From Minisyncoccota bacterium (GTDB lineage Bacteria > Patescibacteriota > Minisyncoccia > Phycocordibacterales > XYD1-FULL-46-19): a DNA stretch of 50,911 nt. Positions 1,784 to 23,339 of this stretch are shown piece after piece. The translations under genes were made by a program, and so were the position numbers. The notes beneath the pieces are model-generated. The model searched no databases, was not told the origin of the DNA, and saw nothing but the letters and a program-made list of their open reading frames with translations. The stretch's first letter is position 1; every line of letters begins with the position of its first letter. The stretch lies in the NCBI GenBank assembly GCA_041664425.1, contig JBAYKU010000004.1, positions 1 through 50,911 on the forward strand. Reading direction: 5' to 3'.

Positions 1784-1822
1784 TAAAATATTCTAGCCTG
1801 TTTTGCCGAGTTTGGCTATCCT

Positions 1823-2386
1823 TTAGTATTTTCTAATCACTCCAGTCACGACAGCGCCGATTTCGAAGCTTTCTTTGGGATAGATAGGTTTGTATTTTTT
1901 GTTGGCGGGTTCGAGATAATTTTTACCGTCTTTTTTCCGTAAAAATTTCATGGTCCAGCCACCGTCAATCCGAGCGATGACAATATCGCCTTCTCGGGCC
2001 CGGTCGCGCTTCTCAGCGACCACCAGATCCCCTTCTTTGATCCCCTCGTCGATCATGGAATCGCCCTTGACCTCTAACACGAAACTTTCATCGCGATGGG
2101 TGATGAGATAGTCATCGAGGTTGATGGTATCCGTCATTTCATCATCAATCATAGTCGGCACTCCCGCCTCCACGAGACCGAGGAGTGGAATCTCGTCGAT
2201 CATTTTGCCGGGTGTTAGACGTCCCTGAGCATCTTTGTTGACTAGACCAGCGTCGGCCATTTTATTGATCAATTTATAGACCGCATTTTTGGACCTAAAG
2301 CCGGTCAGCTCCATGATTTCTTTATAGCCAGGCAAACGGCTATGTTTGTGATAGAAAGAGATAATTTTTTTGCGGTAGGGTTCCAC
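1823..2386 (-). CDS. lexA: LexA-type repressor (winged HTH plus S24 self-cleaving peptidase); apparent GTG start
   Basis: N-terminal HTH (GYKEIMELTGFRSKNAVYKLINKM). The C-terminal S24 motifs GDSMIDEGIKEGDLVV and a later Lys region are present. A GAAC-N4-GTTC box lies upstream at 2661..2676. Confidence 0.88.
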   Translation of the reverse strand: MEPYRKKIISFYHKHSRLPGYKEIMELTGFRSKNAVYKLINKMADAGLVNKDAQGRLTPGKMIDEIPLLGLVEAGVPTMIDDEMTDTINLDDYLITHRDESFVLEVKGDSMIDEGIKEGDLVVAEKRDRAREGDIVIARIDGGWTMKFLRKKDGKNYLEPANKKYKPIYPKESFEIGAVVTGVIRKY

Positions 2387-5104: not shown

Positions 5105-6817
5105 TCATTGTTTGCAAAAGATATTATACCAGACATCGAGGCCTATTATACTAAATAAAATCACAGAATGATCGTTAACCCCAGTTAAATGTTCATCAAT
5201 TAATTTTTTGACAACTTCCCAATCAAAGTATTCTAACACCAGCTTACTCTCTTTTAGTCTGGAAAGATATGGTAATAAAACGCAATCATCCTTAATCCAT
5301 TCGGAAATCGGTAAGCCAAAACCACATTTTTTTCGCAAGACAAAATCCGAAGGGAAATATTTTAAGGCGATTTCTTTTATAGGAGTTTTTTCGCCTAAAT
5401 CACCAATCTTTGTGTCTAAATTATATCCTGCTTCTATAACCGATTCGTAGAGAAAAGGTACCCTGTTTTCAATATTTGCTGCCATTCCAGCCTTGTCTTG
5501 CCTGAGAAGCACATGTGGTAAATAGGTGTTCATGTCGTAAAAACTTAATCTATATTCCCTGCTTAATTCTGCGGTTTTTTGAACAAATTGTTTTCTTTCA
5601 GATAATGACCCTCTGGGCATTTTTAGAATCTTAGAAATCATAACTGGATCAGAAAAAGCATTGGATAGAAGAAGATCATCATCATTATTGATATCTTTTT
5701 GAACATATCTTTTGTATCCAAGAAATATCTCGTCCGCACCCTCTCCTGTTAGTAATACTTTTACATATTTTCTGGCAAATTTTGCGAGAAGATACATTGG
5801 CACAGTATTTGGATGGACAATCGGTCCATCCAGATGATAAGTTATTTTTTCAAAATTATCCACGAAGTCTTTTTTTGTAAAAATAATCTTGTGGTGAATT
5901 GTGCCAAGCTCCTTTGCTACAAAGTCCGAATATTTAAATTCATTCCATTCGCTGTCATTCAGGCCTATCGAAAATGAATGTAAGGCAATTGGAGAATTCT
6001 TTTGCGCTATATAGCTAACCACGCTTGAATCTATACCTCCGCTTAGTTGAATACCGACAGGAGCGTCGCTCATTAGATGACTTTTAACACTCTCAGTTAG
6101 GATATTTTCTATATTTTGTTTTTTTGAACCAACCTTTTCCAGCTCGAAATATTTATTTTTTATATATGTATTAGATTTCAATGAGTAGTCGAGGTATTCC
6201 CCTTGCTGAATTTTAAATATGTTTTTAAATAAAGTTTTTTCATCTGAAATGTGTCTGAACACCATGTGTTCAAAAAGTTTTTCTTCTTCGAGTCGGAATT
6301 GAAAATCTGGTAGGGCACTAAAAGATTTTATCTCTGACGCCCAGGCAAAATACTCAGGGGTGTCCAAAAAGTAAAGAGGCTTAATGGCCATTTTATCTAA
6401 AGCTAAGACCAGTGACTGCTTTTTTATGTCGAGAAAGCTGAATGCGTACATTCCTTTGATCATTTTGAGTACTTCTTCTATTTGGCAGATCTGCAGTATC
6501 TCAAAAAGGGTTGAAGTATCGGAAGAAGACACAAGATCTTTCCCTGCAAGATACTTCTTCCTTGGCACGTTATGGTTATAAATTTCTCCGTTATAAGAAA
6601 GGATAAAATTATCGTTTACAAATGGCTGGTCTGCGTTTTTGGATGTATCAACAATCGACAGTCTGGTATGCCCTATTGTGATATTTTTAATAGAGATAAC
6701 TCCTGTGGCGTCGCCACCACGATGTTGGATAAGATCAAGCATCCCTCCGACAAAAGCCTCTTTTTTTTCTTTACCAAATTTATTTTTTTTATCAATAAAA
6801 CCAACAATGCCACACAT
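5105..6817 (-). CDS. asparagine synthetase B-type glutamine amidotransferase (Ntn Cys2 plus PP-loop synthetase domain)
   Basis: Starts MCGIVGF, placing the catalytic Cys right after Met. Has the PP-loop SGGIDSS. Length is 570 aa. Confidence 0.85.
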   Translation of the reverse strand: MCGIVGFIDKKNKFGKEKKEAFVGGMLDLIQHRGGDATGVISIKNITIGHTRLSIVDTSKNADQPFVNDNFILSYNGEIYNHNVPRKKYLAGKDLVSSSDTSTLFEILQICQIEEVLKMIKGMYAFSFLDIKKQSLVLALDKMAIKPLYFLDTPEYFAWASEIKSFSALPDFQFRLEEEKLFEHMVFRHISDEKTLFKNIFKIQQGEYLDYSLKSNTYIKNKYFELEKVGSKKQNIENILTESVKSHLMSDAPVGIQLSGGIDSSVVSYIAQKNSPIALHSFSIGLNDSEWNEFKYSDFVAKELGTIHHKIIFTKKDFVDNFEKITYHLDGPIVHPNTVPMYLLAKFARKYVKVLLTGEGADEIFLGYKRYVQKDINNDDDLLLSNAFSDPVMISKILKMPRGSLSERKQFVQKTAELSREYRLSFYDMNTYLPHVLLRQDKAGMAANIENRVPFLYESVIEAGYNLDTKIGDLGEKTPIKEIALKYFPSDFVLRKKCGFGLPISEWIKDDCVLLPYLSRLKESKLVLEYFDWEVVKKLIDEHLTGVNDHSVILFSIIGLDVWYNIFCKQ

Positions 6818-6825: not shown

Positions 6826-8385
6826 TTATTGATGTCTCTTTATATAAGCCGCGACAGAACCGGCAATTTCTCTCTCAAGATCTGGTATCTCATTGATTTT
6901 ATCCCAATTACCGCTTCTTAGCTGGTAGTAAAATTTTGATTTCTCTAAAGTGTATTGACCAAAAGACAAGAATTGGAATTCGAACAAAAAGAAAGAGCTA
7001 TCTTTTACGCCAATGTCCAACGCCATATATGGAGCATCAAAATTGTCAAAAACCCTTTTGGTGTAATCTAAAAGGCCAGGAGGCAGCTCTATATCACTTT
7101 TAAACTTCATACTGCCACTAGCCCTAAAATCATTAGAACGGTTAGCTCGGTATAGTACATAGTACTTATTGTTATAAATAACAACTCGATAGTCACCATT
7201 TAATCCTTCAATGTAAGGTTGTAGAATAAATTTTTGGCGATAGTTAGAAATTAATAACGGTTTTTTGCCTGTCTTAATCCACTCAATAAAATACTGAAGA
7301 TTTTTTAAGGAAAAAGTTTTTGAGGCAATCTTAGCAATCTTTATTTTTTCCCTTAGATTTTTAAGCAAAAATACTCCTCGACTTTTTGAAGTGCTACCAG
7401 TTTTAAGAACGAAGTCTTCTTTTTTGACGGCTTCCATATCCTTTAAGTAATCCTCAAACGTGCCGTAACGTTTGGCTTGGATATTTTTTATTTCCGGCAA
7501 GTCCTGAAGATCACGAGCAATCTCCATAAAATGCTTGTTGTGGTGAGCTTTAAACTGGAAGAGACTGGGAATTAGTTTTGCTCCCTGAAAAAATAAACCC
7601 AAAACCAAATCATCAATATAACTCCGATAAAACAATCCAGGATCTTCCGATGACTGATAAAGCACCCATTGCTCTTGATAATTTTGAGTACGAAAATCAA
7701 TTTCTGAAAAAGGCCTGACAACCAACTCAAAACCAAGCTTCTCAAAATAATCTTTGAGTCGATTCAAATCAACAGCCGCTCCTCTCTGTTTTGTAGAGGA
7801 GTAGAATTGACCACGGTAGTCGGTAAAAAGAACTATTTTATTCATTTTATTTTTTGTCTTTAATACTTCTTTCAAAAAAAGATTGTCTCGCAGTATATTA
7901 AAACCTGTATTATAAAAAGTTACTTCACCCTTTTTTAATTGCTCGACTTCTTTTTCTAGGATGGAGATTGCTTCGTCTAACGGCACCCAGATAACGTGCA
8001 AGCCATTCTTTTTTTCCTCTTCGGTTAGATCCAGCTCTCCTTTTTTGCCAATGATTCTGGCTGTATAGCAATGATTAATACAATGTGTTTTATCTCTGTC
8101 GCGAAAATCTTCAATAATTCCAACTATATCAAGAAGGTCAACTTGGCAACCGACTTCTTCTAAGCACTCTCTTTTTACACCATTTTCGATTGACTCATTT
8201 TCATCAATTCCTCCACCAGGCAGCAGGTAGAAAGAGTTAACTTTGTTGCCAACCAAAGCCACCTTACCTTCATTATCAAAAACGATAGCCTTTCCAGTGA
8301 GACGATTTCCAAAAATAACGTTTTTCTCGCTCATCTCTTTGCCGGGAAATACGTCCTTTTCCTTAAAAATAGCTAGTGGGTTCAT
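6826..8385 (-). CDS. fusion protein: N-terminal Nudix hydrolase plus C-terminal ATP-grasp-like ligase domain
   Basis: Complete Nudix box GGIDENESIENGVKRECLEEVGC (GX5EX7REUXEEXGU). The C-terminal half has an ATP-grasp-like core (FVLKTGSTSKSRGV, ILQPYIEG, GDYRVVIYNNKYYVLYRANRSNDFRASGS). The gap to asnB is 8 nt. Confidence 0.65.
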   Translation of the reverse strand: MNPLAIFKEKDVFPGKEMSEKNVIFGNRLTGKAIVFDNEGKVALVGNKVNSFYLLPGGGIDENESIENGVKRECLEEVGCQVDLLDIVGIIEDFRDRDKTHCINHCYTARIIGKKGELDLTEEEKKNGLHVIWVPLDEAISILEKEVEQLKKGEVTFYNTGFNILRDNLFLKEVLKTKNKMNKIVLFTDYRGQFYSSTKQRGAAVDLNRLKDYFEKLGFELVVRPFSEIDFRTQNYQEQWVLYQSSEDPGLFYRSYIDDLVLGLFFQGAKLIPSLFQFKAHHNKHFMEIARDLQDLPEIKNIQAKRYGTFEDYLKDMEAVKKEDFVLKTGSTSKSRGVFLLKNLREKIKIAKIASKTFSLKNLQYFIEWIKTGKKPLLISNYRQKFILQPYIEGLNGDYRVVIYNNKYYVLYRANRSNDFRASGSMKFKSDIELPPGLLDYTKRVFDNFDAPYMALDIGVKDSSFFLFEFQFLSFGQYTLEKSKFYYQLRSGNWDKINEIPDLEREIAGSVAAYIKRHQ

Positions 8386-8418
8386 TTTAGCTGATATAGT
8401 TTAAATTACGACAAATAA

Positions 8419-8449
8419 TTGACTTTTTGTAAAACAATTGTATTATAAT
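8419..8449 (+). promoter_or_regulatory. possible promoter TTGACT (8419..8424) with TATTAT/TATAAT (8441..8449) upstream of the histidine phosphatase gene
   Basis: Read directly from the sequence. The spacer is 16 or 19 nt depending on which -10 is used. A GAGGAGG SD precedes the ATG at 8494. Confidence 0.35.
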
Positions 8450-8493
8450 ACAGGATCCATTCTTTTTCAACCCACAACCGAGGAGGTGTTCCT

Positions 8494-9177
8494 ATGGACA
8501 CAAAACCAAGAAGACTGTTCGTCATGAGGCACGCCGAATCTCTTGAGGACATCGACAAGACCGCCTACGAACGCATTGCTGATGAGGATATGCCTCTAAG
8601 TACGTATGGTCGGGAGCAGGCTGCGGAATTTGGTTCAAGGTTTGTCTCGAGTTTTGGCCCCTGCCAATCTCTAAGGCTCATCTTGTCACCCAGTAAGAGG
8701 GTGCTTGAGACAGCCGAGATTTTGGTCTCAAGGCTACCTGCAAGTATTAAGTGGTCACTGGCAACGGAAAGCCTCATTACCAAGCAAAACTGGGGAAATG
8801 TGACTATCCACAATCGGTCCGAGATCGAAAAGGAACGATACCGGATAGGAGTACTTCGCTACCAATTCCCAGGAGGAGAAAGTGGCGAGGAAATGCTCTT
8901 TCGGTTTGACCTCTTTGCGAAGAGATTATCGAAGGAGATGGCAGATCTCTCGACAGATGAGGCAGTACTCATAATCTCTCATGGTTTCGAGATGCGAGTT
9001 ACGCTGAAATCGCTACTCGGTTGGACCGAAGACTACTTTGAATCTCTGGCTCACCCCCAGCACTGCGAGATCAAGAGATTAGCCTTTGATCGAGGTTTGT
9101 TTGTACTTCTCGATGAGATGGTCAAGTATGACCATTCGAGCAATCCAGACTTTATTCGGAGACAATCAGCACAGTGA
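8494..9177 (+). CDS. histidine phosphatase superfamily protein (phosphoglycerate mutase-like branch)
   Basis: Contains RLFVMRHAES (an RHG-type catalytic motif) and a second His in IISHGFEMR. Confidence 0.75.
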   Translation: MDTKPRRLFVMRHAESLEDIDKTAYERIADEDMPLSTYGREQAAEFGSRFVSSFGPCQSLRLILSPSKRVLETAEILVSRLPASIKWSLATESLITKQNWGNVTIHNRSEIEKERYRIGVLRYQFPGGESGEEMLFRFDLFAKRLSKEMADLSTDEAVLIISHGFEMRVTLKSLLGWTEDYFESLAHPQHCEIKRLAFDRGLFVLLDEMVKYDHSSNPDFIRRQSAQ

Positions 9178-11006: not shown

Positions 11007-12080
11007 TTATAGCCAATCTATCTGCGGAGGTAAACGGTAGCAATGCTCGGCTGGCTCTCCATCATAGCCAAGACGAAAAGAAATTAAAAAATACTCCTTA
11101 TTTTTATCAATTTTTAAAATGTCAGCGATGTCGTTGTATGATTTTTCTATTAAAGTTATTTGTTTCTCATTAAACGGCTGAGAATCATTTTTTCTTAATT
11201 TAAAATGAAAAAAACCAATGCCAGTCAATAATTGAGTGCTTAATCCGTTCTGAGCTGCTGTTAGCCACACTCTTTGCATTACTCGCCCAGTATTAACGAT
11301 ATCGACAGGTTGATCTGAAGGAATAATTATTGTTCCAATCATTGCCGAATGATTAAATATTTTTTCATTGTCTTTAGCTACTAAGTCAGAGGCATGGATA
11401 GTTTTATTAAAAAAATTCATTATAGGCCAAAAGCGAAGAAGTTTAAAAACTAGAGTTTTTGGAAATTTAAGTTCCAATGTTTTCATCCCCATACCTATTC
11501 TTTTTTGCTTCTGCTCTTCCTCTGTCCAGGTTAGGTGATGAAACAAAAAATTATGAATCTCTTTTGTTTCTAGAGCTAATTTTTCATTGTAGCTTAGTGG
11601 TTTTGATAACTTTTTAATTGTTTCATTGTCTTCTTCCAAGATTAATCTCCCATATCCAACTTTGGAAATGCAGTCCATCAGTGATGTCTTTATTTTTTCA
11701 GGAATTTCTTTTTTAAAATATGGTTTTCTGTTAGTACATCTTTTTTCAATCGTTTCAAATGATATATCTTCTTCGTTTTTGATATTTTCGTCTTTTGTCA
11801 AATCCACTCGAGCGGTTAATTCGTTATCATTTCCATTTGGAAACAAAAGTACTGTTGCCCCGTAACCTAAATTTTTAGATGCAATCACTATATTCTCTAT
11901 AACAGCGCCATGGGCAGTATTAATAGAAGCGTTATTACTATTGTAAACTGACGTATCTCGCTCAGGAAAAGAATAAAGAAGAATTGAGTTATTTTTGACC
12001 TTAAACCTCCATGGTTGGCTATTGTCTCCAGATGGGGCTAGCGTCCCGTAGTAAATTATTTTCTCAATATCTTCTTTCAT
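11007..12080 (-). CDS. tandem-domain nitroreductase-family (FMN-dependent oxidoreductase-like) protein
   Basis: Contains APSGDNSQPWRF, a typical nitroreductase N-terminal motif. At 357 aa it is about twice single-domain size. It lies 12 nt upstream of the kinase gene. Confidence 0.6.
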   Translation of the reverse strand: MKEDIEKIIYYGTLAPSGDNSQPWRFKVKNNSILLYSFPERDTSVYNSNNASINTAHGAVIENIVIASKNLGYGATVLLFPNGNDNELTARVDLTKDENIKNEEDISFETIEKRCTNRKPYFKKEIPEKIKTSLMDCISKVGYGRLILEEDNETIKKLSKPLSYNEKLALETKEIHNFLFHHLTWTEEEQKQKRIGMGMKTLELKFPKTLVFKLLRFWPIMNFFNKTIHASDLVAKDNEKIFNHSAMIGTIIIPSDQPVDIVNTGRVMQRVWLTAAQNGLSTQLLTGIGFFHFKLRKNDSQPFNEKQITLIEKSYNDIADILKIDKNKEYFLISFRLGYDGEPAEHCYRLPPQIDWL

Positions 12081-12482: not shown

Positions 12483-12625
12483 AAGAAACTTTTCAAATTT
12501 AATCGACTTATAAAAAAACTACGTGCTGATATTGCAAGATAAAATCCATTGATTTTTTAGTAATATTGCGTATATTATATATTGATAACAAAAACATTTT
12601 TGCCAGTCTTATTAAAAAAAATACC

Positions 12626-15166
12626 ATGTCCGATACCCCTAAAAACTTAGATCGACCCCAAAGCAAAATTGAAGAAAAAGAGAGGTACAACCCCTTCGAA
12701 AAGGAGGTGTACTGGCAGGATTTTTGGGAGAAAGAAGGTGTGTATAGATTTAACCCCGAACTCCCTAAACCTATCTACACAGTAGACACCCCTCCCCCTA
12801 CTGTTTCCGGAGCATTACATTTGGGTCATATTTTTTCCTACACTCAGGCCGAGATAATTACGCGCTTCAAGAGAATGAGTGGCTATAATGTTCGTTACCC
12901 TTTTGGTTTAGATAATAACGGACTACCAACAGAACGATTAGTAGAAAAAGAGACTGGCGTTAGGGGTAGTACCATTAATTTAGGAGATTTTGTAAAAACC
13001 TGCCTTGAAATTACCGACAAATATAAAATCTTATACGAAAACTTGCTAAAATCACTAGGTCTTAGCGTTGACTGGAAATTGGAGTATTCCAGCATTTCTG
13101 CCGACGTCCAAAAAATATCTCAACTTACTTTTAAAGAATTATATGACAAAGGGCTTATTTATAAAAAAAATGCTCCGGCTCTCTATTGTACTGAATGTCA
13201 AACGTCATTTGCACAAGCCGAAAAGGAAGATAAAGAAAAAAACGCCGTTTTTTATGATATATCATTCAAAATTGAAGACGGTGGCGAGCTAATTATCGCG
13301 ACAACAAGGCCAGAACTTTTACCAGCTTGCGACGCTATTTTTGTCAATCCAGAGGATGAAAGATTTAAGCAGATTATAGGGAAAAAAGTAATTACCCCAT
13401 TGGGCTATATGGTAAAAGTAATGACCGACGAAAAAGTTGACCAGGAAAAGGGCTCCGGCGCTGTAATGTGTTGCACCTATGGAGACGAAACCGATATCTA
13501 CTGGGCAAAAAAATATAATCTAAAAGAAAGGATTATTTTAGATAGAAAGGGAATGATAACTGGGGTGAATGAAATATCCGAGTTAAACGGTAAAACAGTA
13601 AACGAGGCAAGGAGAATCATCGTTGAAAATCTAAGGTCAGGTAATTTTATAAAAAAAGAAGAACAAATTAAACACAATGTGGATGTTCATGAGAGATGTG
13701 GCACCCCAGTAGAATTTTTGCCGACAACTCAATGGTTTATTAAGATTCTCGATATGAAAGAGAAACTGTTGGATGCCGGTAAAAAAATAAATTGGTATCC
13801 ATCGCACATGAGAAAAAGATATGAGGAATGGGTCACCGGTTTAAAGTGGGATTGGTGTATATCGAGAGAACGGTTTTATGGAATACCAATACCAGCATTT
13901 AATTGCAGTAATTGCAGTAATGTTTTAATCCCAGAACAAGATTTATTGCCCATGGATCCCAAAATGGCAACTGAAATCCAAGATTGCCCTGTTTGTGGCG
14001 CAGGCAAAATGATTCCAGAAAGAAATGTCCTAGATACCTGGTTCACATCGTCCTTGTCCCCAGATATAAATAACTCCAACCGGCTCAATGGGAGTTTTGA
14101 TGGTAAATTGTACCCAATGTCCATGAGGCCTCAAGCTCATGATATCATTAGAACTTGGGCAGTTTATTCTATATTAATGGGCCTATACAGACACAATGAT
14201 ATACCCTGGAACGATTTAATGATCTCGGGCCATATTTTAGTCCAAAAGGGAGAAAAGATTAGTAAAAAAACAGGTGGAGGAAAATACAAGCCAGAAGAAT
14301 TGATTGCGACACAATCAGCCGACGCCATTAGATATGCAATGAGTGGAGCTTCTCTGGGTAAAGATTCTTATTTTGATGAAAAAGAGGTTGAAAAAGGTAA
14401 GAAATTAGTCACCAAAATATATAACGCTGGAAAGTTAATTCTGGATAAATTGGAAGATTTTAGTCCTAAAATGACGGTTGAGAAGAGAGATCTAGAAGCA
14501 ATTGATGCTTGGATATTAAACAAATCATTTAAAACAGCAGAAAATATGTCTTCTGCTTTTAGTAATTATGAATTTGGCCAAGCCAGGCAAATTTTTGAAG
14601 ATTTTTTCTGGAAAGATTTTTGCGATAACTATTTGGAAATCGCAAAAGCCAGATTGAATATTAGAGATAAAAACAGTAAAGAAAAAAGATCCGCTTTGTT
14701 TGCATCGTATAATTGTTTACTAAATATACTTAAAATGGCCTCGCCATTTATCCCACACATAACAGAAGAGATGTTTCATGCGGAAATTAAAAAAAGCAAT
14801 CAGGCGGATGGAAGTATTAAAGTTTTTTTTATTTCTGATAGTGGTAAAGGGTACTTCTTCAATGAACTAAAAATAAAAAGTATCCACGAATCCCAGTGGC
14901 CTTCGTCAGATATTTTATATTCGGATAATGAAAATGATCACAATTCAGATCTAGCTCTATCTGTTATTTCCGAAATAAGAAAATACAAAAATGAACACAA
15001 AATAAAATTGGGAGCCCAGACAACCTTATTGAAGATTAAGTGTTCCGAAGATCAAAAGAATAGGCTAAATAAATTTTTGAAAGACGTTACTTCTTTAGCG
15101 AGAGCGAATTCTAGCGAAATAGAGATTGTCAACAGCGAGGAGCTTAGTGTAAAAATCGAGCCATAG
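12626..15166 (+). CDS. valS: valyl-tRNA synthetase (start moved to the internal ATG MSDTPKNL)
   Basis: Contains PPPTVSGALHLGH (ValRS-type HIGH region), GLDNNGLPTE, WCISRERFYGIPIP and a KMSKS-like KISKKTGG. Length is ~846 aa. The DNA is AT-rich compared with trpS, alaS and leuS. Confidence 0.8.
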   Translation: MSDTPKNLDRPQSKIEEKERYNPFEKEVYWQDFWEKEGVYRFNPELPKPIYTVDTPPPTVSGALHLGHIFSYTQAEIITRFKRMSGYNVRYPFGLDNNGLPTERLVEKETGVRGSTINLGDFVKTCLEITDKYKILYENLLKSLGLSVDWKLEYSSISADVQKISQLTFKELYDKGLIYKKNAPALYCTECQTSFAQAEKEDKEKNAVFYDISFKIEDGGELIIATTRPELLPACDAIFVNPEDERFKQIIGKKVITPLGYMVKVMTDEKVDQEKGSGAVMCCTYGDETDIYWAKKYNLKERIILDRKGMITGVNEISELNGKTVNEARRIIVENLRSGNFIKKEEQIKHNVDVHERCGTPVEFLPTTQWFIKILDMKEKLLDAGKKINWYPSHMRKRYEEWVTGLKWDWCISRERFYGIPIPAFNCSNCSNVLIPEQDLLPMDPKMATEIQDCPVCGAGKMIPERNVLDTWFTSSLSPDINNSNRLNGSFDGKLYPMSMRPQAHDIIRTWAVYSILMGLYRHNDIPWNDLMISGHILVQKGEKISKKTGGGKYKPEELIATQSADAIRYAMSGASLGKDSYFDEKEVEKGKKLVTKIYNAGKLILDKLEDFSPKMTVEKRDLEAIDAWILNKSFKTAENMSSAFSNYEFGQARQIFEDFFWKDFCDNYLEIAKARLNIRDKNSKEKRSALFASYNCLLNILKMASPFIPHITEEMFHAEIKKSNQADGSIKVFFISDSGKGYFFNELKIKSIHESQWPSSDILYSDNENDHNSDLALSVISEIRKYKNEHKIKLGAQTTLLKIKCSEDQKNRLNKFLKDVTSLARANSSEIEIVNSEELSVKIEP

Positions 15167-15196: not shown

Positions 15197-15252
15197 TTTG
15201 TTGTCGATGGTAAACAAAAAGAGATTAAAACACACCTAAAACAGCCTTAATT
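15197..15252. repeat. copy A of a ~56-bp intergenic repeat (TTTGTTGTC...AAACAAAA...ATTAAAACA.ACCTAAAA.AGCCTTAATT)
   Basis: Matches 48/56 positions of copy B (17847..17902) in my hand alignment. Located just 3' of the M16 peptidase gene. Confidence 0.7.
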
Positions 15253-15264
15253 GTTGTCGCAAAT

Positions 15265-16482
15265 TTATTGTTTAGTCTTAATGACAGTTACTTTTTCCTC
15301 GGTAAGATAAGTTTTAACAACACGAAAAATATCCTCCAGAGTGATTTTTTTGATATTTTCCTCATATTTTTCTAAAGTCACCACTTGATTTAGAGAAGAA
15401 TAGGTTGTCCCGAGTTCATAGATTAGAGACATCCGATTAGACAAAAATCTTCTTTTTCTTTCTTTCAGTAAAGACTGTCTTTTGCTGTCTAGCTCCGGTT
15501 GTGAAATGTTGTCTAATTTTTTTAATTCTTCATAGACAAGCTCGGTCGCTTTGTCTGGATTGCTAGACTGAAATTTTATATTAAAATAGCCGGCATCGCT
15601 GGCTGCCGCATTGGAAGTTCCTACTCCATAGGAAAGGCTATTTTTCATTCTCAGAGTTTGGTAGAGTCTAGAATCTTTTCCTAAAGAAAGAATTGCTCTT
15701 AAAAGCTCTAGTGGATAAAAGTCTGGATGGCCATAAGGAATTGTCAGAAAATTTAATTGTACCATCGTCGATTGGGGGCTAATGAAATTGCATTCTAGTT
15801 GGGCTGGTTTAGGGATTTTAGTAAGTCGTTTTTTGGCTTCTCGCCTTTTTTTTACTTGCCCAAAGTGTTTTTCAGAAAGATTTTTGACTTTATCGAGGTC
15901 TAAATCACCCAAACAAATAATTAGGGTTTGGCCCGGGTCAGTGACTTCTTCCCAGATTTTTTGGATTTTAGCCTCTGTCGCTTTGTTTATCGCTCGATCT
16001 TGACCATAGGGAATCTTTGTCAGATCAGAACCATTTAAAATTGATTTCTGAGAAAAATAATAGATGGAGCGATCGATATTGCTGGGCATATTCGACAACT
16101 CTTGGTCGATGATTTTTGTTTCTCGGTCAATGCTATTTTGGGCTAAAATTGGATTTTTGACTTTATCAGAGAGAAGGGAAAATATTTCTTCTATATCATC
16201 AGCGAGAAATTCCGAATCAAGATAAACAAATTCGACTCCAGTATAAGCATTCAAAAAAGCCCCGGTTTTTTCTTTAATCTTGGCAATGGCAAATTCATCA
16301 GGATAAAGTTTGGAGCCGTTGGCCATCAGATGTTCCAGTAAGTGGTGAAGGCTCTCTTCTCCCTCATCCTCGTCACGATCCCCCTGTCGGAACCAAACAC
16401 TCAAGTTGACCAAGGGAGAGCCCTTTATCTCCCCATAAAGTAATTTGATACCGTTTGATAATTCAGCTGTAAAATATTGCAT
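15265..16482 (-). CDS. M16 (pitrilysin/insulinase) family zinc peptidase
   Basis: Has the inverted zinc motif HxxEH in LHHLLEHL near the N-terminus. At 405 aa it has the size of one M16 N+C domain pair. Confidence 0.8.
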   Translation of the reverse strand: MQYFTAELSNGIKLLYGEIKGSPLVNLSVWFRQGDRDEDEGEESLHHLLEHLMANGSKLYPDEFAIAKIKEKTGAFLNAYTGVEFVYLDSEFLADDIEEIFSLLSDKVKNPILAQNSIDRETKIIDQELSNMPSNIDRSIYYFSQKSILNGSDLTKIPYGQDRAINKATEAKIQKIWEEVTDPGQTLIICLGDLDLDKVKNLSEKHFGQVKKRREAKKRLTKIPKPAQLECNFISPQSTMVQLNFLTIPYGHPDFYPLELLRAILSLGKDSRLYQTLRMKNSLSYGVGTSNAAASDAGYFNIKFQSSNPDKATELVYEELKKLDNISQPELDSKRQSLLKERKRRFLSNRMSLIYELGTTYSSLNQVVTLEKYEENIKKITLEDIFRVVKTYLTEEKVTVIKTKQ

Positions 16483-16547
16483 AAAGTATATTGAAATTTA
16501 AGTATAACATTTATTAATTCGTAGATTAAATTTTATTAGAATAATAA

Positions 16548-16583
16548 ATATCCTAGCGTTCCAAAGTGAAAACGCTAGGATAT
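16548..16583 (-). terminator. rho-independent terminator after the precursor-peptide ORF
   Basis: 13-bp perfect stem ATATCCTAGCGTT / AACGCTAGGATAT with a 10-nt loop. It lies 19 nt after the peptide stop and is followed on the minus strand by TTATTATTCTAATAAAAT. Confidence 0.7.
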
Positions 16584-16601
16584 GGGACGATTTGGTGTTT
16601 A

Positions 16602-16724
16602 TCACCAACAATCATCTGGTGGAGCAGGGCATTGGTCACAGCACCCACTGTGGTTTGCTTCAAAGCAAACTCCTGATGCTAATTGCTGTGGGGTCGTGCC
16701 GCTGTTTTTAATTGGTATATTCAT
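16602..16724 (-). CDS. unannotated 40-aa Cys-rich peptide, candidate RiPP precursor: MNIPIKNSGTTPQQLASGVCFEANHSGCCDQCPAPPDDCW
   Basis: Found by manual codon-by-codon translation. The extended SD GGGAGGTGA sits 7 nt before the ATG, and the ORF starts 19 nt after the radical-SAM stop. Five Cys (positions 20, 28, 29, 32, 39) sit in the C-terminal half. A dedicated terminator follows. Confidence 0.65.
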   Translation of the reverse strand: MNIPIKNSGTTPQQLASGVCFEANHSGCCDQCPAPPDDCW

Positions 16725-16743
16725 TCTCGAATCACCTCCCTTC

Positions 16744-17767
16744 CTATTTGATTATATCTACTGGATTAAAGTACGTCCAGAGGATAGAACAACCTCCTGC
16801 GCAAATGTCATATTGTGAACAATGCTGACATTTCTCGCTTGGGTAACAAGCTAGCTTGTCGTAAATTTCAACTACAGACTTTCTGGTAAAAAAGTTGGTG
16901 AACTCTTCTGGTGTTAAAAAATCTTTTCCATACTTCCCTATCGGATAAGGAAAAAGATGATTACAAACCAGGAGAGAACCATCTGTATCAAAAACAACAC
17001 CAGATCTTTTTGATAAATGGCAGCCTGTTTGTATTTGTTTACGATCAATCATATCCCTGATGAAGTGTTTGTTCCACAAACACAGAGGATAGCTACATCG
17101 TAAATAAATTTTTCCTTGTAGTATTTTTTCTGCTTGGAATAGCTGATTTGAGATGTTTTTGATCATCTCACCCAGTTCTTCCCAAGTGTAATCAGATGAC
17201 CATTGACCCTTGGAAAAAATTGGAGTGTAGAGACTGATATTCAGACTTGCTACTCCTAGCGTAGTGGCTGTTGTCGCCAATTGTTTTAGGTCACAGTCAT
17301 TTGGATGGCAGACAAAGGCTAGTCCAGAACCCTTAATAGATAAGGCTTTCCTTAGTCCAGATAAATAGCGGTGCCAGTCAATATTACATCCTACATCTTC
17401 GAATTTTTCTTCACTCGAAGCTTTAATAGAAACTCCAACGCTACTGTTAGACTGTTTTTTTATATGTGTCGAGAAACTCGTCAGATAGAAAACGCAGACC
17501 ATTTGTAACAATTGTGCTACTGACTCTGTTGTTGATGTAACTATTAAAATCAGATAGATGTGGCCAAATAGTTGGCTCTCCTCCAAAAATTGCTAATTGT
17601 TTGGCACCTGAATCAATAATTAAATCGGCGATAGCACAGGCCAGAGGCAAATCCATTTCATCTGGTTTAGTTAAACAAGCGTCTTTGGAATAGCACCACC
17701 GACAGCCAAGGTTGCAAGCCCTGTTTACAGTCAAACACACTATTTTGGGTTTAACAGGAGGAAGCAT
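16744..17767 (-). pseudogene. radical SAM / SPASM-domain peptide maturase, split into two overlapping ORFs (17447..17767 and 16744..17586) by a frameshift at an A7 run (17455..17461)
   Basis: The N-terminal ORF has CNLGCRWC (CX3CX2C). The C-terminal ORF has the SPASM pattern C...DGSLLVC (GX4C) and CQHCSQYDICAGGC (CX2CX5CX3C). Removing one A from the run joins ...LDTYKK to QSNSS..., giving ~340 aa. Confidence 0.8.
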
Positions 17768-17846
17768 TTCGATTTTCCTTTCAAAGATCTATTCTTCCTC
17801 TGGAACCATTCCGGAGAAAATCTAATTAAAACATAACACTTTCGAC

Positions 17847-17902
17847 TTTGTTGTCTATAGCAAACAAAACAAAATTAAAACAGACCTAAAATAGCCTTAA
17901 TT
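17847..17902. repeat. copy B of the ~56-bp intergenic repeat, extended by a perfect palindrome CCTAAAATAGCCTTAATTAAGGCTATTTTAGG
   Basis: See copy A. It lies between the NDT-like gene and the radical SAM gene. Confidence 0.7.
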
Positions 17903-17935
17903 AAGGCTATTTTAGGTAAAAGGCTGGGAATTTTG

Positions 17936-18394
17936 TTAAATTTGTTGTCTTACTGCAACAGAATTTTTATCTTTAAAGGACTTAAATATAGATAACTGAT
18001 TATTTAAGATGATTGGATTCATCGCTTTAATTTCGTGAAAATAATAACGTATTTTGGGTACTGGATTTACAAGATAAATTGGTTTTTTTAGAATATGTGC
18101 AAAGCCTATTTCTAAGAAAGCATTGCCTCCTATGTAGTTTTTTATTTTGTTTTTATCGTAATTAGCAATGATTATACAGTCTGCCTCAACAATATGATTA
18201 TAATGTTTCCTTATGTAATCATATTTTATCTTTAATTTATAAGTGTCGACGTAACCTTTAGAAATTATTTTTTTCAATTGTTCATTGGTGGATGGATCAG
18301 GTAAAATAACTTTATTTCCCATAGAAATTAGCCTCTCCTTTATTGTAACCATTTTAGAATAGTTTGTCATTGACCCACAAATGACTATATTCAT
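17936..18394 (-). CDS. small Rossmann-like protein, possibly nucleoside 2-deoxyribosyltransferase-like (NDT/SLOG-type fold)
   Basis: Starts MNIVICGSM. The segment NYIGGNAFLEIGFAHILKKPIYLV resembles the ...G...E.G.A...KP... signature of NDT-like proteins. This is a weak, motif-only call. Confidence 0.3.
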   Translation of the reverse strand: MNIVICGSMTNYSKMVTIKERLISMGNKVILPDPSTNEQLKKIISKGYVDTYKLKIKYDYIRKHYNHIVEADCIIIANYDKNKIKNYIGGNAFLEIGFAHILKKPIYLVNPVPKIRYYFHEIKAMNPIILNNQLSIFKSFKDKNSVAVRQQI

Positions 18395-18403: not shown

Positions 18404-18802
18404 TTAGAAAAACTTTTTTATTAATTCATCCATACAGTTCAGAACAAATTTGGCATCTTTTATTGCATCGATAGCTACGTCTTTATTGTATCCTTCCTCC
18501 TGGTGAAGGGCTGGACCTCTTTTTCTTGATAAATCTATAGAAATTTCTTCAATTTTTTCTGCATCAAATCCAATATCAAAACCTTTCATTTTCAAAACCC
18601 TCATCAATAGTGGTGCCTGATCGTGGCTTTTGGGATAATGTATTCCAAGTAATGCTAGAACGGCGGTAAGTTCTAATTCCACCGCTTCTTGTGATCTTCT
18701 TATGCTCATATTCCAAATTTCTCTTTCAAAAGAGCCTTCGGCGTGTTGAATACATTCTATTGATGCCCTCATTAACAATTGTGATCTTTGCAAATTATTC
18801 AT
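18404..18802 (-). CDS. HEPN-domain protein (putative toxin partner of the upstream nucleotidyltransferase)
   Basis: A 132-aa all-helical protein placed 6 nt downstream of an MNT-type gene, which is the classical MNT-HEPN arrangement. The domain call rests on context plus general resemblance. Confidence 0.5.
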   Translation of the reverse strand: MNNLQRSQLLMRASIECIQHAEGSFEREIWNMSIRRSQEAVELELTAVLALLGIHYPKSHDQAPLLMRVLKMKGFDIGFDAEKIEEISIDLSRKRGPALHQEEGYNKDVAIDAIKDAKFVLNCMDELIKKFF

Positions 18803-18808: not shown

Positions 18809-19696
18809 TTAAAAATTTTTTGGTAACACCCAACACCACTTGCCGCTTGGTAAAGTTGATTTTTTACTGTTGGTATTTTTTATTTTGTCCTTTATATCTT
18901 CTAAAAATTTTTTACCAATATTTTGATTATCATCAAAAATTATTCCGTGATCTGATATGTCTAAAAATAACCATAGGAAGCTGTTTAAATGTTTACTACT
19001 CAAAAAAACAGGGTATATCTCTGGGTAGATACTTTTTTTTGAAAGATCTAAGTAGGTTTTTTGTCGTCGAGAATTTTTTATTATTTGGATAAATTTATTG
19101 TTGATATTTTTACGACTTATTTTTTCTTCATCAAAGATAATTAGCAAATCAATATCACTTGATCCCCTTGCTTCTCCGCGAGCAACTGAACCAAACAATA
19201 TAATAGATAAGACCTTGCCCTCGCATTCCTTGTTTACTTTTTGTTTGAATTCCTCTAAAAAATTATTATAGTCATCTACCCCCAAGGCCACAGGTTCGTT
19301 CTCCGATTGGAGAGATGCTAAAAAATTATTTATCAAATTTATATCGATTAGGTCCTTATCTCTTCTTACTAATTTTTTATAATAAAGAACTTCTTCTAAT
19401 TTTACGAATGGTAAACCTTTAATCTTTTCTGCTTCGTTTATCATCTGATTGATATCTTTATTTGTGGGCGCAAACCACCAATTTGAAATTTTAATTGATC
19501 CAATTCTAATAAAACCCTCACTATCCAGTGGATTTGTCTTTAAAAGTTCTATCCAAAGTCTGTCAGTTACAATTACGTCAATATTTGGAGCTTCTCTAAT
19601 ACCTCGTATTGCCATTACCGCACTACCAAATATTGCGAATTCGTTTTGAGGAAAATTCTGTTGCCTTATATCTTTAATCAAATCATTAATTTCCAT
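18809..19696 (-). CDS. minimal nucleotidyltransferase (MNT) family protein with two NTase-like segments
   Basis: Has the canonical GSxxRG...DxD signature ILFGSVARGEARGSSDIDLLIIF. A second, degenerate copy lies near the N-terminus: FAIFGSAVMAIRGIREAPNIDVIV. Confidence 0.7.
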   Translation of the reverse strand: MEINDLIKDIRQQNFPQNEFAIFGSAVMAIRGIREAPNIDVIVTDRLWIELLKTNPLDSEGFIRIGSIKISNWWFAPTNKDINQMINEAEKIKGLPFVKLEEVLYYKKLVRRDKDLIDINLINNFLASLQSENEPVALGVDDYNNFLEEFKQKVNKECEGKVLSIILFGSVARGEARGSSDIDLLIIFDEEKISRKNINNKFIQIIKNSRRQKTYLDLSKKSIYPEIYPVFLSSKHLNSFLWLFLDISDHGIIFDDNQNIGKKFLEDIKDKIKNTNSKKSTLPSGKWCWVLPKNF

Positions 19697-19782: not shown

Positions 19783-19854
19783 AGAAGATATAGACAGAAG
19801 CGGTAAATTATGTTAAATTTGTCTAATAGCAACAACAAATTAAATAATAAAACT

Positions 19855-20631
19855 ATGCCTATTATCTCCAATAACCTGCTGGTTAAAAATCTCGTCGAAT
19901 ACGGCCTCAGTGACAAGGAAGCCAAGATGTACCTGGCCCTGCTCGAGCTGGAAGTCGGCACCGTTAATGAGGCGGCCAAAGCTGCTGGGGTCAACCGCAG
20001 TTCCGCCTATGTCGTCCTCGAATCGCTCAAAGAGAAGGGTTTAATCAGCGTGGCTGGTGATAAAAAAATTCAACATTATATAGCCACTTCTCCCGAAGCT
20101 CTCCTCTACTCGGCTGAAAGTCGAGCCCAAGCACAAGAAAGCATCAAAAATAAAATTGCTGACATTGTGCCAGAGTTGAAAGCTTTGCATAAAGATACCA
20201 AGCAGAAGCCCAAAGTTTATGTTTTTGAAGGAATGAATGGTCTCATGGCAAGTTTTCAATCTTCTTTAAAAAATAAAGAAAAATTTATGAGATCTTTTTC
20301 TTCGGCAGAAAAAATACCAGATGCAATGGCTGAATATATAAGAAGGAGAACCCAATTGGGTATAAAAATGCGTGGAATTTATCTTGACAACAAACAATCT
20401 TTTAATTTAATAAAAATGTTACCTAAAACAGATGAATTTGTTGTTATTCCAAACAGTAAATATACCTTTGATTCTAATTTAGCTATTTACGATGATAAAA
20501 TTGGGTATATCTCTCCACAAAATGGAGGCTATTCAATTATTATTGAAAATCAAGATATGGCAGATATATTGAAAATAATCTTTGACCTGGCTTTTAGTGG
20601 ATCTAAAGGACTCAGTAAAAAACGTGTATAA
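19855..20631 (+). CDS. TrmB-family transcriptional regulator (start moved to MPIISNN)
   Basis: The N-terminal winged HTH LVEYGLSDKEAKMYLALLELEVGTVNEAAKAAGVNRSSAYVVLESLKEKGLI is typical of TrmB-type regulators. Confidence 0.7.
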   Translation: MPIISNNLLVKNLVEYGLSDKEAKMYLALLELEVGTVNEAAKAAGVNRSSAYVVLESLKEKGLISVAGDKKIQHYIATSPEALLYSAESRAQAQESIKNKIADIVPELKALHKDTKQKPKVYVFEGMNGLMASFQSSLKNKEKFMRSFSSAEKIPDAMAEYIRRRTQLGIKMRGIYLDNKQSFNLIKMLPKTDEFVVIPNSKYTFDSNLAIYDDKIGYISPQNGGYSIIIENQDMADILKIIFDLAFSGSKGLSKKRV

Positions 20632-20647: not shown

Positions 20648-22189
20648 TTACTTTATTACCCAGCGTTGTTTTCCTTTAAGACAGAAATATTTTTCGTGAT
20701 TGCATGTCCAAAAAATGATTTTGGGTTTTGCTCGATTTCCCAAATTTCTATATAATTCTCTGAATTCTGAGTTTTTATTTATAAGGTTTTCTACAACAGT
20801 TTTTAAAATTGTTTTTTTGAGATTGGTATCTTTTTTACTACCATTTTTGAGTTCAACATTTATTTCTAAATACTGATTTTGTTTGGCGTCGTTCTTTGTC
20901 AGCATGGTGAATTTACCAGTAACTCGATCTTTTATTTCTGAGTGAGAAACAAGTACTTCCTTGACATGTTCTGGGTAAACATTTAATCCATAAAGAGTTG
21001 TTGATAGGTCAGCTCTTTCGTATACAAATACAAACGGTAAATTCATATTAGTCTCACTGATTTTAGCTTCTTTGATTTCTTTATCTAAATTTATACCAAG
21101 TTCTTTTAATTTGGTTTTGATATCAGCCAAAGTAAAAATCCCTCCGTTGTCTTTTAAATCATAACGAACCAATGGGATACCGCTAAAAGCTGAACAAATG
21201 ATTTTTCCCTTGTCGTGCTCAAAATAGAACATTTCAGGTAGATATTGAGCCAGGGTTGGGACTTTCATGTTTTGACCAAAGATTGATTCAAAAATTTTTG
21301 AGTCACGCATGGCGATGCGACGAATGAGGACAGACAACGGCGTTTCATGAGCGATAGTTCCCTGGTCGACGGTGCCGTAGTGATTCAGGGTAAGAGAGTA
21401 TATATTTTTCAAACCAATACGCTCGGCAATGTAGTCACGAAATTTTTCGCTAAAAGCTTCAGCCGAGAAAATAATTCTGAGATTATAATCGGACCATTTT
21501 ATCCCTTGCTCAATACCAGCATCAATCACATCTTTTACAAAAGGTGGATACCCCCCCAAGATCACCTGGTCATAATTTGGCCCAAGATTAAGAATTGATT
21601 TAATTATTTCTTGTTTGTTAATACCGGGAGTAATAATGCTTAAATTGTAGTGCCCTCTTTCGGCAACGTTTTTAACCGCTTGATAAGTAAAAAGACCACC
21701 AATCCAAGCCCCCATAGCAAAACCATCAACATAGAGAGTGGTTTTTTTGTCGATTTGAAAATTGTTGAGTAGATACATCTCGGCTGTAACAGAATACTGT
21801 TTATCCTGAAGATTGCCTCGAGGGAAGTAAAAAGGTTCGCCAGTCGAGCCGGAGGTTGAGGAATAGACATGCCAACCATGAGAAATATTTCCATCCCAAC
21901 AAAGATCAGCTAAAGGATATTCACGTAAATAATTATCTTTATTGATGACAGGAATTTTTTCAAAATCAGCAACAGTCTTAATTTTGGTTGGATTTATATC
22001 GTGTTTTTTTAGAAAGTTTTTGTAGGCTGGTACACGCTTAGCCATCATGTGAAAAAGTTCCAGGGCCATTTCTTCACCACGACCAATCCAAAATTTTTCT
22101 GGTTTAGTCTTAAGTTTTTCCAGTAATTTTACTGGATTATTATATTCCTTAGATAAATCTGCTATTTTTGGATTGGGTTTAAAATACAT
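20648..22189 (-). CDS. adenylate-forming enzyme of the phenylacetate-CoA ligase / coenzyme F390 synthetase (PaaK/CapK-like) family
   Basis: Contains YSSTSGSTGEPFYFPR (an AMP-binding P-loop-like motif of this family). Length is 513 aa. Confidence 0.65.
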   Translation of the reverse strand: MYFKPNPKIADLSKEYNNPVKLLEKLKTKPEKFWIGRGEEMALELFHMMAKRVPAYKNFLKKHDINPTKIKTVADFEKIPVINKDNYLREYPLADLCWDGNISHGWHVYSSTSGSTGEPFYFPRGNLQDKQYSVTAEMYLLNNFQIDKKTTLYVDGFAMGAWIGGLFTYQAVKNVAERGHYNLSIITPGINKQEIIKSILNLGPNYDQVILGGYPPFVKDVIDAGIEQGIKWSDYNLRIIFSAEAFSEKFRDYIAERIGLKNIYSLTLNHYGTVDQGTIAHETPLSVLIRRIAMRDSKIFESIFGQNMKVPTLAQYLPEMFYFEHDKGKIICSAFSGIPLVRYDLKDNGGIFTLADIKTKLKELGINLDKEIKEAKISETNMNLPFVFVYERADLSTTLYGLNVYPEHVKEVLVSHSEIKDRVTGKFTMLTKNDAKQNQYLEINVELKNGSKKDTNLKKTILKTVVENLINKNSEFRELYRNLGNRAKPKIIFWTCNHEKYFCLKGKQRWVIK

Positions 22190-22198: not shown

Positions 22199-23260
22199 TT
22201 AAAACTTCGGCAAATTGATGTACTCCCGGACGAAGAAAGTTTTATTATCCCCCACAGCAATCTGTTTAATGGCATAAGTCGCCACTACTCCACCTAAAAT
22301 CGCGGCGCTACCGAGCTGGGACCATGACACAAGTTCCTTTTTCATCACTCGGCCAACTGAGGCAATCATTTTGGGGTCAACTTGGTGCATACCACCGACT
22401 ATGTCATTGATAATGATGTCGCCGGCTAATTCTTTGCCCATGGGACCAGATAATTTTTGTTGCCAATAAGCTTCATCTTTTTCAAAAATTTTGTCATAAC
22501 CGAGGTCATATCTTTCGATATGGAGGACGACACCATCGCCGTTGTCGGTAATCATGACTACTGGCACTTTGTATTTGAGAGCGAGCTTGCGAGTTTCAAT
22601 CTTCATCGTCATCTCATCAATCTCCTCGATAATACAGTCTATTTCCTTGTTAGCCAGTAATTTTTCTAAATTCTCAACGTTAATTCCCTGATCGAAAGTG
22701 GTGACTTCGGCGTAGGGGTTGTCTTCGTAGATATGTCTAGCGGCAATGGTGGTTTTATTTAGTCCGATTTGGTGGGTACCGGCGAGAATGCGATTCAAAT
22801 TGGTCGTATCGAGTTCATCAAAATCGGCAATGGCGATTTTGTTGGAGATGCCAGCTTGAGTTAAAACAAAAGCGATATTACTGCCGACACTCATACCAAA
22901 AACGCCGATCTTAAAATTCCGGAGAATTTCTTGCTCGGCGCTAGTAATCAAATCTTGATTACGATTGGTTTTCAAAGTCAAAAAGTCGTTGATCTGGGCA
23001 CATTTGACGATAGTTTGATTCCAGGGATAGAAAATATAATTAAAATGGTCTTTTTTGGTCTCGCAATATTTTTTAAAATCCTCAGTCTGGTAGGCAGTTT
23101 CTTTGTCAGTGCCAATATATTGTTTGTTATCAATAAAGAAAAGCTCTTTTAATTGACGCTCGAAAGCATCGATGTATTGAAAATTGATCAGCTTCTCTTT
23201 GAGCGAGGCTAGCTCGGCTTCATCCTTGAAAATAGTCGGTTTGACTTCTTGATTTATCAT
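22199..23260 (-). CDS. ThiF/MoeB/E1-like adenylyltransferase with a ~110-aa N-terminal extension (start set at the first ATG; the track uses an upstream TTG at 23296)
   Basis: Has the nucleotide-binding loop IGVFGMSVGSNIA and IADFDELDTTNLNRI (the D.D....NLNR signature of the E1 superfamily). The gap to the PaaK-like gene is 9 nt. Confidence 0.7.
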   Translation of the reverse strand: MINQEVKPTIFKDEAELASLKEKLINFQYIDAFERQLKELFFIDNKQYIGTDKETAYQTEDFKKYCETKKDHFNYIFYPWNQTIVKCAQINDFLTLKTNRNQDLITSAEQEILRNFKIGVFGMSVGSNIAFVLTQAGISNKIAIADFDELDTTNLNRILAGTHQIGLNKTTIAARHIYEDNPYAEVTTFDQGINVENLEKLLANKEIDCIIEEIDEMTMKIETRKLALKYKVPVVMITDNGDGVVLHIERYDLGYDKIFEKDEAYWQQKLSGPMGKELAGDIIINDIVGGMHQVDPKMIASVGRVMKKELVSWSQLGSAAILGGVVATYAIKQIAVGDNKTFFVREYINLPKF

Positions 23261-23339
23261 TGCTATTATTGTAACATAATAATTAATAATTGGCAAGCCG
23301 TAGCGCCATTTTGAGATCTTGTTCCCCTAGCGATATGTC

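Follow-up and report, generated by a model that had tools for sequence, protein, structure and literature searches.

A minimal radical SAM/SPASM, Cys-rich peptide and peptidase cassette in a Patescibacteria genome points to a previously undescribed family of radical-SAM-modified peptide genes

Bacteria of the candidate phyla radiation (CPR, Patescibacteria) have tiny genomes and are attached to or dependent on other cells, and to our knowledge very few of their natural products have been characterised. Contig JBAYKU010000004.1, of which a stretch of 50,911 nucleotides was analysed (hereafter the window), carries on its minus strand a 2.6-kb cassette of three genes that encode a radical S-adenosylmethionine (SAM) enzyme with a SPASM domain, a 40-amino-acid peptide rich in Cys and Asp, and an M16 zinc peptidase. 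This raises the question of whether the cassette makes a ribosomally synthesised and post-translationally modified peptide (RiPP) and, if so, which modification the peptide receives. A first-pass annotation, made from the DNA letters, had described a compact maturase-precursor-peptidase cassette at this place, and its layout is confirmed by the sequence. We find that the cassette represents a previously undescribed family of radical-SAM-modified peptide genes, radical SAM/SPASM-modified peptides as such being known, and we put at roughly 60% the probability that it is a minimal RiPP cassette of a new radical SAM family that probably forms Cys-Asp thioether rings as in PapB or QhpD.

The answer depends in the first place on whether the short open reading frame (ORF) next to the maturase is a gene, for which the following features of the window are needed.

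16602..16724, minus strand: gene of the 40-aa precursor peptide, with its ATG at 16724, encoding MNIPIKNSGTTPQQLASGVCFEANHSGCCDQCPAPPDDCW
16732..16740, minus strand: Shine-Dalgarno sequence GGGAGGTGA, 7 nt 5' of the peptide ATG
16548..16583, minus strand: intrinsic-terminator-like hairpin of 15 pairs with a T-rich tail, directly 3' of the peptide gene

The ORF begins 19 nt beyond the maturase stop codon (16744-16746), with GGGAGGTGA lying within this gap, and five Cys stand among the last 21 residues of its product; the gap, the 40 codons, the extended Shine-Dalgarno sequence, the Cys-rich end and the terminator had all been read at first pass, and all of them proved correct. Close relatives of the maturase form a small set (41-55% identity), mostly on CPR contigs, and a related peptide ORF of 41-45 codons is present in every one of them with readable DNA. 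It lies directly downstream of the maturase and on the same strand in the window and at the related loci L001, L002, L005/L006/L007, L009 and L015, to which a further variant, P0024, can be added, and in all five related loci examined an AGGAGG-type site precedes it as well. The ORF had been predicted to be conserved beside homologous maturases and, with seven peptide variants, it is. Two motifs are invariant in the six aligned peptides (6/6), P-x2-L-x2-G in the leader and C-x4-D-D in the core; in the window they correspond to P12-x2-L15-x2-G18 and, within the core VCFEANHSGCCDQCPAPPDDCW, to C32-x4-D37-D38. These invariant residues are written in different codons, in loci whose GC content runs from 37% to 57%, and on this ground conservation at the RNA instead of the protein level was rejected. 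Moreover, when a hidden Markov model (HMM) was built without the window peptide, from the remaining six, and searched against all 1450 six-frame segments of the window, the ORF was the only significant match (E = 8e-9; next best 0.3). Judged by this conservation, the 40-codon ORF is evidently a real gene, and the general marks of a RiPP cassette are present, namely a precursor conserved beside a modifying enzyme, a conserved leader and a variable core. The peptide matches no model in NCBIfam or Pfam, known precursor models included, which justifies the new precursor family that had been suggested for it. A peptide-profile search of 5.8 billion proteins returned five clusters, all from the loci retrieved here or from close variants. 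The precursor is absent from protein databases because the public gene calls for the locus annotate a 78-aa ORF (16582..16818, plus strand) antisense to it and omit the 40-aa gene.

The second question concerns the enzyme that would act on this peptide. Its gene is split by a frameshift, as follows.

17447..17767, minus strand: N-terminal part of the radical SAM/SPASM maturase, 106 codons, with CNLGCRWC at residues 18-25
17455..17461, minus strand: A7 homopolymer, the frameshift site; one A out (or two in) restores the 340-aa frame
16744..17454 (ORF 16744..17586), minus strand: C-terminal part of the maturase in the +1 frame, completing the radical SAM barrel and adding the SPASM domain

The N-terminal ORF stops at a premature TAA two codons past the A7 run; an A6 run instead would continue the frame as ...DTYKKQSNSSVGVSIKASS... 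into a 340-aa protein, which aligns end to end with 20 homologues, the frameshift junction included. On this repaired maturase PF04055 scores 53.7 bits (cut-off 29.5), which together with the CX3CX2C motif places it in the radical SAM superfamily, and C18, C22 and C25 are invariant among 107 relatives. The canonical SPASM motif, CX9-15GX4C ... CX2CX5CX3C ... C, binds two auxiliary [4Fe-4S] clusters. In the C-terminal ORF we find G-SLLV-C and CQHC-SQYDI-C-AGG-C, that is GX4C ... CX2CX5CX3C, just as had been noted for this minus-strand enzyme together with its CNLGCRWC cluster. Seven further Cys are conserved in the family (C229, C249, C268, C313, C316, C322 and C326), spaced as C249-x13-G-x4-C268 and C313-x2-C316-x5-C322-x3-C326, and the SPASM model TIGR04085, with a cut-off of 27 bits, is only just passed (28.5 bits; P0003, a homologue, reaches 35.8). 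As the radical SAM motif begins at residue 18, the maturase has no N-terminal extension resembling a RiPP recognition element (RRE), and the cassette contains no PqqD-like gene.

The maturase reaches no specific curated NCBIfam family: the matches listed for it score 29-51 bits against cut-offs of 180-650. They include GeoRSP, NirJ1/2, PapB, viperin, MoaA, the SCIFF maturase, QhpD, the anaerobic sulfatase-maturating enzyme (anSME) and MftC, while AlbA and PqqE occur as equally weak matches in homologues only and are not among the matches listed for the window enzyme. Thus, the window enzyme stays far below the PapB-family model NF047865 (46.1 bits against 340; homologues 36-77 bits), the SCIFF maturase model TIGR03974 (36.2 against 425) and the anSME model TIGR03942 (35.3 against 349), and the same holds for the cofactor maturases MftC, NirJ/Ahb and MoaA (matches listed, 29-51 bits against 231-650). 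Among the neighbouring genes scanned there is neither a sulfatase nor a cofactor-pathway partner. In a comparison of the family profile with PDB sequences SkfB, CteB and SuiB rank first. With NCBIfam scores far under the cut-offs and these three as its nearest solved relatives, the maturase falls outside the non-RiPP SPASM clades (anSME and the cofactor maturases), a placement that the first-pass annotation had considered as the alternative to its own.

An exhaustive profile search of 1.84 billion representatives yielded 540 clusters (50% identity) at E <= 1e-30, and 0 of 107 members of this wider family match any NCBIfam model at E <= 1e-40. Distant homologues (27-35% identity), where their neighbourhoods were read, likewise adjoin short Cys-rich peptides, with ACGACGAC, CDCDCNC or CFCKCD motifs in the cores. 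Peptides with ACGACGACGAC repeats lie beside ~30%-identity homologues in metagenome-assembled genomes of Lachnospiraceae, Bacillales and Muribaculaceae, CDCDCNC-type cores are found at L016 and L019, CFCKCD at L025 and two Cys-containing peptides at L026. The wider family is thus a clade of maturases for Cys-rich peptides that has no curated model, and the window cassette belongs within it to a rare, mostly CPR subclade marked by the C-x4-DD core. Literature searches for ACGX, for radical SAM RiPPs of CPR and Saccharibacteria and for ranthipeptides of Patescibacteria found no description of the family. Intact versions of the cassette are present at L001, L015, L005 and L002.

Some of these loci have further features. 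L016 (1-6830) is a phage-like contig (TerL, AntA) that carries the distant homologue P0007 (33-34% identity, on 22 contigs) and two CxC-rich peptides flanking a DUF4760 gene, and may represent a phage-borne radical SAM peptide system. At L001, the closest intact relative, a second radical SAM/SPASM gene of 430 aa, a further SPASM ORF and a SET-domain gene lie within 5 kb (743-2035, minus strand; 7797-8513, plus strand), and several peptide-modification systems may be clustered there. CYTH-like genes occur within a few kb of the cassette at L005 (2543-3046), L009 (7488-8060) and L015 (3624-4172), the call being backed by Pfam for L015 and made by eye for the other two; the window contains nothing comparable.

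The third gene of the cassette encodes the peptidase.

15265..16482, minus strand: M16 zinc peptidase, 405 aa, with HLLEH at residues 47-51 and R120-E121...E128 downstream

Both Pfam domains pass their cut-offs (PF00675, 59.4 bits; PF05193, 89.9 bits), and the protein has the HxxEH motif with a downstream Glu, the active N-domain and the inactive C-domain of the M16 family, in agreement with the M16 HxxEH peptidase proposed earlier as the next gene. M16 enzymes are documented as leader peptidases for class III lanthipeptides (PMC10885120), and the window M16 presumably acts as the leader peptidase here. A peptidase gene adjoins the maturase/peptide pair in seven loci, an M16 in four of them (window, L001, L015 and L009) and an HExxH protein in the other three (L005/L006, L003 and L002). 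The M16 gene is located 3' of the peptide in the window and at L015, on the opposite strand at L001 and in two ORFs at L009; the HExxH neighbours are proteins of 150-230 aa without a Pfam match, those of L003 and L005 being homologous to each other. By this pattern a peptidase is a recurrent third component of the cassette and the M16 as such is interchangeable. Of the M16 partnership first proposed, the presence stood, in four loci, but its constancy did not, because an HExxH protein replaces it in three and because the M16s of the window, L001 and L015 are 21-27% identical, against 43-53% for their maturases.

These components suggest how the cassette might work. The 40-aa peptide would be made with an N-terminal leader carrying P-x2-L-x2-G, and the RRE-less enzyme of ~340 aa would apply 5'-deoxyadenosyl radical chemistry to its Cys/Asp-rich core. 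The likeliest product would be a thioether from the invariant Cys to either of the invariant Asp residues 5 or 6 positions on (C-x4-D-D), and extra bridges from the remaining Cys are possible. A zinc peptidase, the M16 here and a small HExxH protein in some relatives, would then cut off the leader, perhaps after the conserved Gly. In QhpC, a small polypeptide with an acidic and Cys-rich sequence, the radical SAM/SPASM enzyme QhpD forms thioethers from Cys to Asp/Glu. The CX3D/E motifs on which PapB acts acquire Cys-Asp/Glu thioethers, and the enzyme copes with spacings of 0-6 residues (PMC9413430).

Several observations weigh against this reading. The thioether is predicted by analogy, from the Cys/Asp-rich core and the likeness of the enzyme to PapB, QhpD and CteB. 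An AlphaFold model of the maturase (predicted local distance difference test, pLDDT, 86.9; predicted template modelling score, pTM, 0.86) has as its best PDB fold matches the peptide-modifying SuiB, SkfB and CteB and the protein-modifying anSME, at template modelling (TM) scores of 0.62-0.69 and with SuiB best of all, and SuiB and anSME are no worse as fold matches than the thioether synthases. The close clade lacks the final 'gap-C' of canonical SPASM motifs, which makes ligation of the second auxiliary cluster uncertain; to judge from the motif, one auxiliary cluster could have an iron site left open. The link to the M16 appears loose, given the 21-27% identity between loci and the other peptidases elsewhere. 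The maturase is frameshifted in the window and the L009 copy is likewise broken. Finally, no transporter or immunity gene was found in or near the cassette among the neighbouring genes scanned, which would be unusual for a bacteriocin.

SuiB is an enzyme of C-C crosslinking and anSME one of Cys oxidation, and the modelled fold does not separate thioether formation from either of these. A cassette of the same kind might carry out another chemistry, be it a C-C crosslink to a C-terminal aromatic, as made by SuiB and the darobactin/dynobactin and triceptide enzymes, or an anSME-like oxidation or transformation of Cys; we hold this to be unlikely. In addition to SuiB as the best structural match and the equal closeness of anSME, it can draw on the Trp or Tyr that stands within the last 1-4 residues of every close-clade peptide (W40 in the window; DWS or DYS in relatives) and on WgkB, DynA and YhhB among the weak NCBIfam matches. 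However, the aromatic position, unlike C-x4-DD, is not an invariant column, and the distant cores (ACGACGAC, CDCDCNC) are often without an aromatic residue but always Cys-rich.

The cassette without an exporter or immunity gene also bears on where the product acts. It would suit an intracellular peptide-derived cofactor or a metal-binding peptide instead of a secreted antimicrobial, similar to pyrroloquinoline quinone (PQQ) with PqqA, PqqE and the M16 protein PqqF, to mycofactocin, or to QhpC and cysteine tryptophylquinone (CTQ). The three gene products parallel PqqE, PqqF and PqqA in type (radical SAM/SPASM enzyme, M16 peptidase, small peptide), the core combines acidic residues with many Cys and closes with Cys-Trp in two members, and the MftC, PqqE and QhpD models give weak matches. 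Nevertheless, no partner genes like PqqB/C/D, MftB/D/E/F or a dehydrogenase are present nearby, the core varies much outside C-x4-DD, and an accessory trait is the better fit for a cassette of rare and patchy occurrence that has repeats at its flanks and is broken in two genomes. We therefore consider a cofactor product very unlikely and retain the modified-peptide cassette with predicted thioether rings as the best explanation.

With regard to the frameshift, the same A7 run is found in three public records with 0 mismatches over 2.8-2.9 kb (ENA k141_227137, JGI Ga0376277_0003398 and Logan SRR6484324_6491), which come from different pipelines though possibly from the same sample of origin; being identical in all three, it cannot be put down to the error of a single assembler. 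Because all three public assemblies of the locus carry the +1 shift, the window copy of the maturase is most likely inactive or decaying, and the frameshift is most likely a recent inactivating mutation. The first-pass annotation had spoken of a frame-corrected maturase but underweighted the need for repair, as the copy, the same in three assemblies, is probably non-functional. Alternatively, transcriptional slippage or a +1 ribosomal shift on A7 might yield some full-length maturase and a low, possibly regulated activity. The shift does lie exactly in a homopolymer with the 0-frame stop two codons downstream, both maturase halves are otherwise without stops or further damage, and the peptide and M16 genes are intact. 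On the other hand, homologues are intact, with no frameshifting A run at this place, a stimulatory element is not apparent, and seven A is shorter than the runs with documented efficient transcriptional slippage, which counts against such a bypass and leaves it, in our view, quite unlikely. The Saccharibacteria copy at L009 (4001-6637) looks decayed too, its maturase being N-terminally truncated and frameshifted near the C-terminus and its M16 split into two ORFs, with the peptide gene intact. That this second copy is also broken suggests that the cassettes are dispensable.

Direct repeats bracket the cassette in the window.

17847..17902, no strand assigned: right copy of the 56-nt direct repeat, overlapping the terminator hairpin of the upstream gene (palindrome 17884-17917) in its 3' arm and extending as far as the -35 element of a promoter-like site
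15197..15252, no strand assigned: the matching left copy, located between the stops of the M16 gene (15265) and the valyl-tRNA synthetase gene (15166); of the hairpin, only the 3' arm is present

The two copies are 86% identical, are the only ones in the window, and none would be expected by chance. Since they bracket the cassette, their sequences suggest that it arrived as a discrete unit. Repeats also bracket the cassettes of L001 (86 nt; 2959-3044 and 5698-5783) and L005 (~250 nt; 3618-3865 and 5734-5980), and the repeats of these three CPR loci are 81-86% identical; none were found at L002 or L015. Their presence in the window, L001 and L005 suggests modular gain and loss through recombination, and the pattern would fit insertion of a circular DNA through one crossover at short homology, after which recombination between the repeats could remove the cassette again. 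Neither an integrase nor a tRNA nor an Rfam element accompanies the cassette, and the whole window is without a tRNA, which rules out a tRNA-linked island, and without an Rfam match. A dispersed intergenic element was rejected on account of only two copies in 51 kb, and an integron attC reading was dropped, there being no integrase, two copies only and no R'/R'' core sites by eye. The L001 repeat contains a TTGACA...GATAAT promoter-like site, and that of L005 includes the 3' end of the duplicated HExxH gene. A further contig, L024, carries P0040, a homologue of the TrmB-like regulator in the same 90%-identity cluster as the window regulator gene (19810..20631), and ends in the terminator palindrome 48 nt past the upstream gene (L024 1-48 against window 17884-17935), where the contig end makes the presence or absence of the cassette in this close relative unreadable. 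In a more far-reaching view, the C-x4-D-D core and the Trp/Tyr would be made into a new type of crosslink or an intracellular redox or metal-binding cofactor, and the repeat-bracketed 2-3 kb cassette would then be mobile among Patescibacteria; this we regard as an unlikely, speculative outcome.

As for its setting, the uS13 and uS11 proteins of the window fall into 90%-identity clusters shared with Candidatus Vogelbacteria and Patescibacteria-group proteins, by which the host genome is assigned to the CPR/Patescibacteria, and the CPR-like genome first supposed is thereby supported. The accompanying claim of AT-rich accessory DNA did not hold: the GC content of the cassette (0.374 over 15197-17902; 0.35-0.40 in 600-nt steps) is ordinary for the region and not lower than that of its neighbours (0.29-0.40; window mean 0.40). 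The cassette is flanked by a 152-aa gene of unknown function (17936..18394) and by the convergent valyl-tRNA synthetase gene (12566..15166, plus strand), and a minus-strand promoter-like site lies at 17857-17830, upstream of the maturase gene. Membership in a defence system was rejected on a PADLOC scan, in which no system takes in the cassette and no component matches significantly at full length: the sole match, of 48.8 bits to pVip, is confined to the radical SAM core (residues 10-129), and the M16 peptidase has no match. Upstream of the cassette a HEPN-domain protein and an MntA-like nucleotidyltransferase (18404..18802 and 18809..19696, minus strand) form an apparent HEPN/MNT toxin-antitoxin pair with weak matches to the PADLOC candidate system PDC-S09. 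Farther out, on both sides, lie an Acg/Rv1355c-like protein with a double nitroreductase fold (11007..12080, minus strand), a PaaK-like adenylating enzyme (20648..22189, minus strand) and a ThiF-family protein (22199..23296, minus strand); as Rv1355c-type proteins are ThiF-nitroreductase fusions, these three may have a joint function.

A pathway of three genes and 2.6 kb is small enough for direct synthesis and expression, and the invariant C-x4-DD provides a clear, testable prediction of the modification site. The chemistry of the family, once defined, would annotate hundreds of genes at once, because a family of ~540 clusters without a curated model is consistently paired with short Cys-rich peptides.

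It remains to compare the cassette with known systems. In sactipeptides the Cys sulfur is joined to the alpha carbon of the acceptor residue and in ranthipeptides to its beta or gamma carbon. PapB/PapA (freyrasin) likewise combines a short radical SAM/SPASM enzyme (~330 aa), positions 5-317 of the 330 in NF047865 aligning to window residues 10-327, with a short peptide substrate in which a Cys is followed by an Asp a few residues on. However, PapA has six CX3D/E repeats and a different leader, whereas the window peptide has one invariant C-x4-DD with variable extra Cys, and a peptidase is part of the window cassette, unlike PapB/PapA. In QhpD/QhpC the model TIGR03906 gives the window enzyme 36 bits against a cut-off of 453, and no dehydrogenase subunits, QhpE or QhpG lie near the window cassette. 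SCIFF/CteB (thermocellin) similarly places a Cys-rich precursor of ~40-45 aa beside a radical SAM/SPASM thioether synthase, and CteB is among the best PDB matches of the window enzyme by sequence and by fold; CteB, though, is ~450 aa long with an N-terminal RRE, whereas the window enzyme starts directly with CX3CX2C and its peptide matches no NCBIfam precursor model, that of SCIFF included.

Subtilosin sbo-alb also joins a radical SAM/SPASM thioether synthase (AlbA) to M16-type peptidases (AlbE/AlbF). The alb operon encodes two M16 subunits, an ABC transporter and immunity genes, whereas the window cassette has a single M16 and nothing else; the AlbA model NF012164 reaches 39 bits against a cut-off of 850 in the homologue P0007 and is not among the matches listed for the window enzyme. 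The PQQ pathway (PqqA, PqqE, PqqF) shares the small peptide, the radical SAM/SPASM enzyme and the M16, and the window M16 does match PqqF weakly (E = 8.5e-4), but PqqB, PqqC and PqqD are lacking from the window cassette, the peptide is without the Glu-x3-Tyr motif, and homologues of the window enzyme score 57-67 bits for PqqE against a cut-off of 381. The ACGX-repeat system, defined in silico by the radical SAM/SPASM model TIGR04340, has a similar model length (341 positions), and distant homologues of the window enzyme adjoin ACGACGACGAC-repeat peptides; the window peptide has no ACGX repeats, and the most that TIGR04340 reaches, in one homologue, is 55 bits (cut-off 400).

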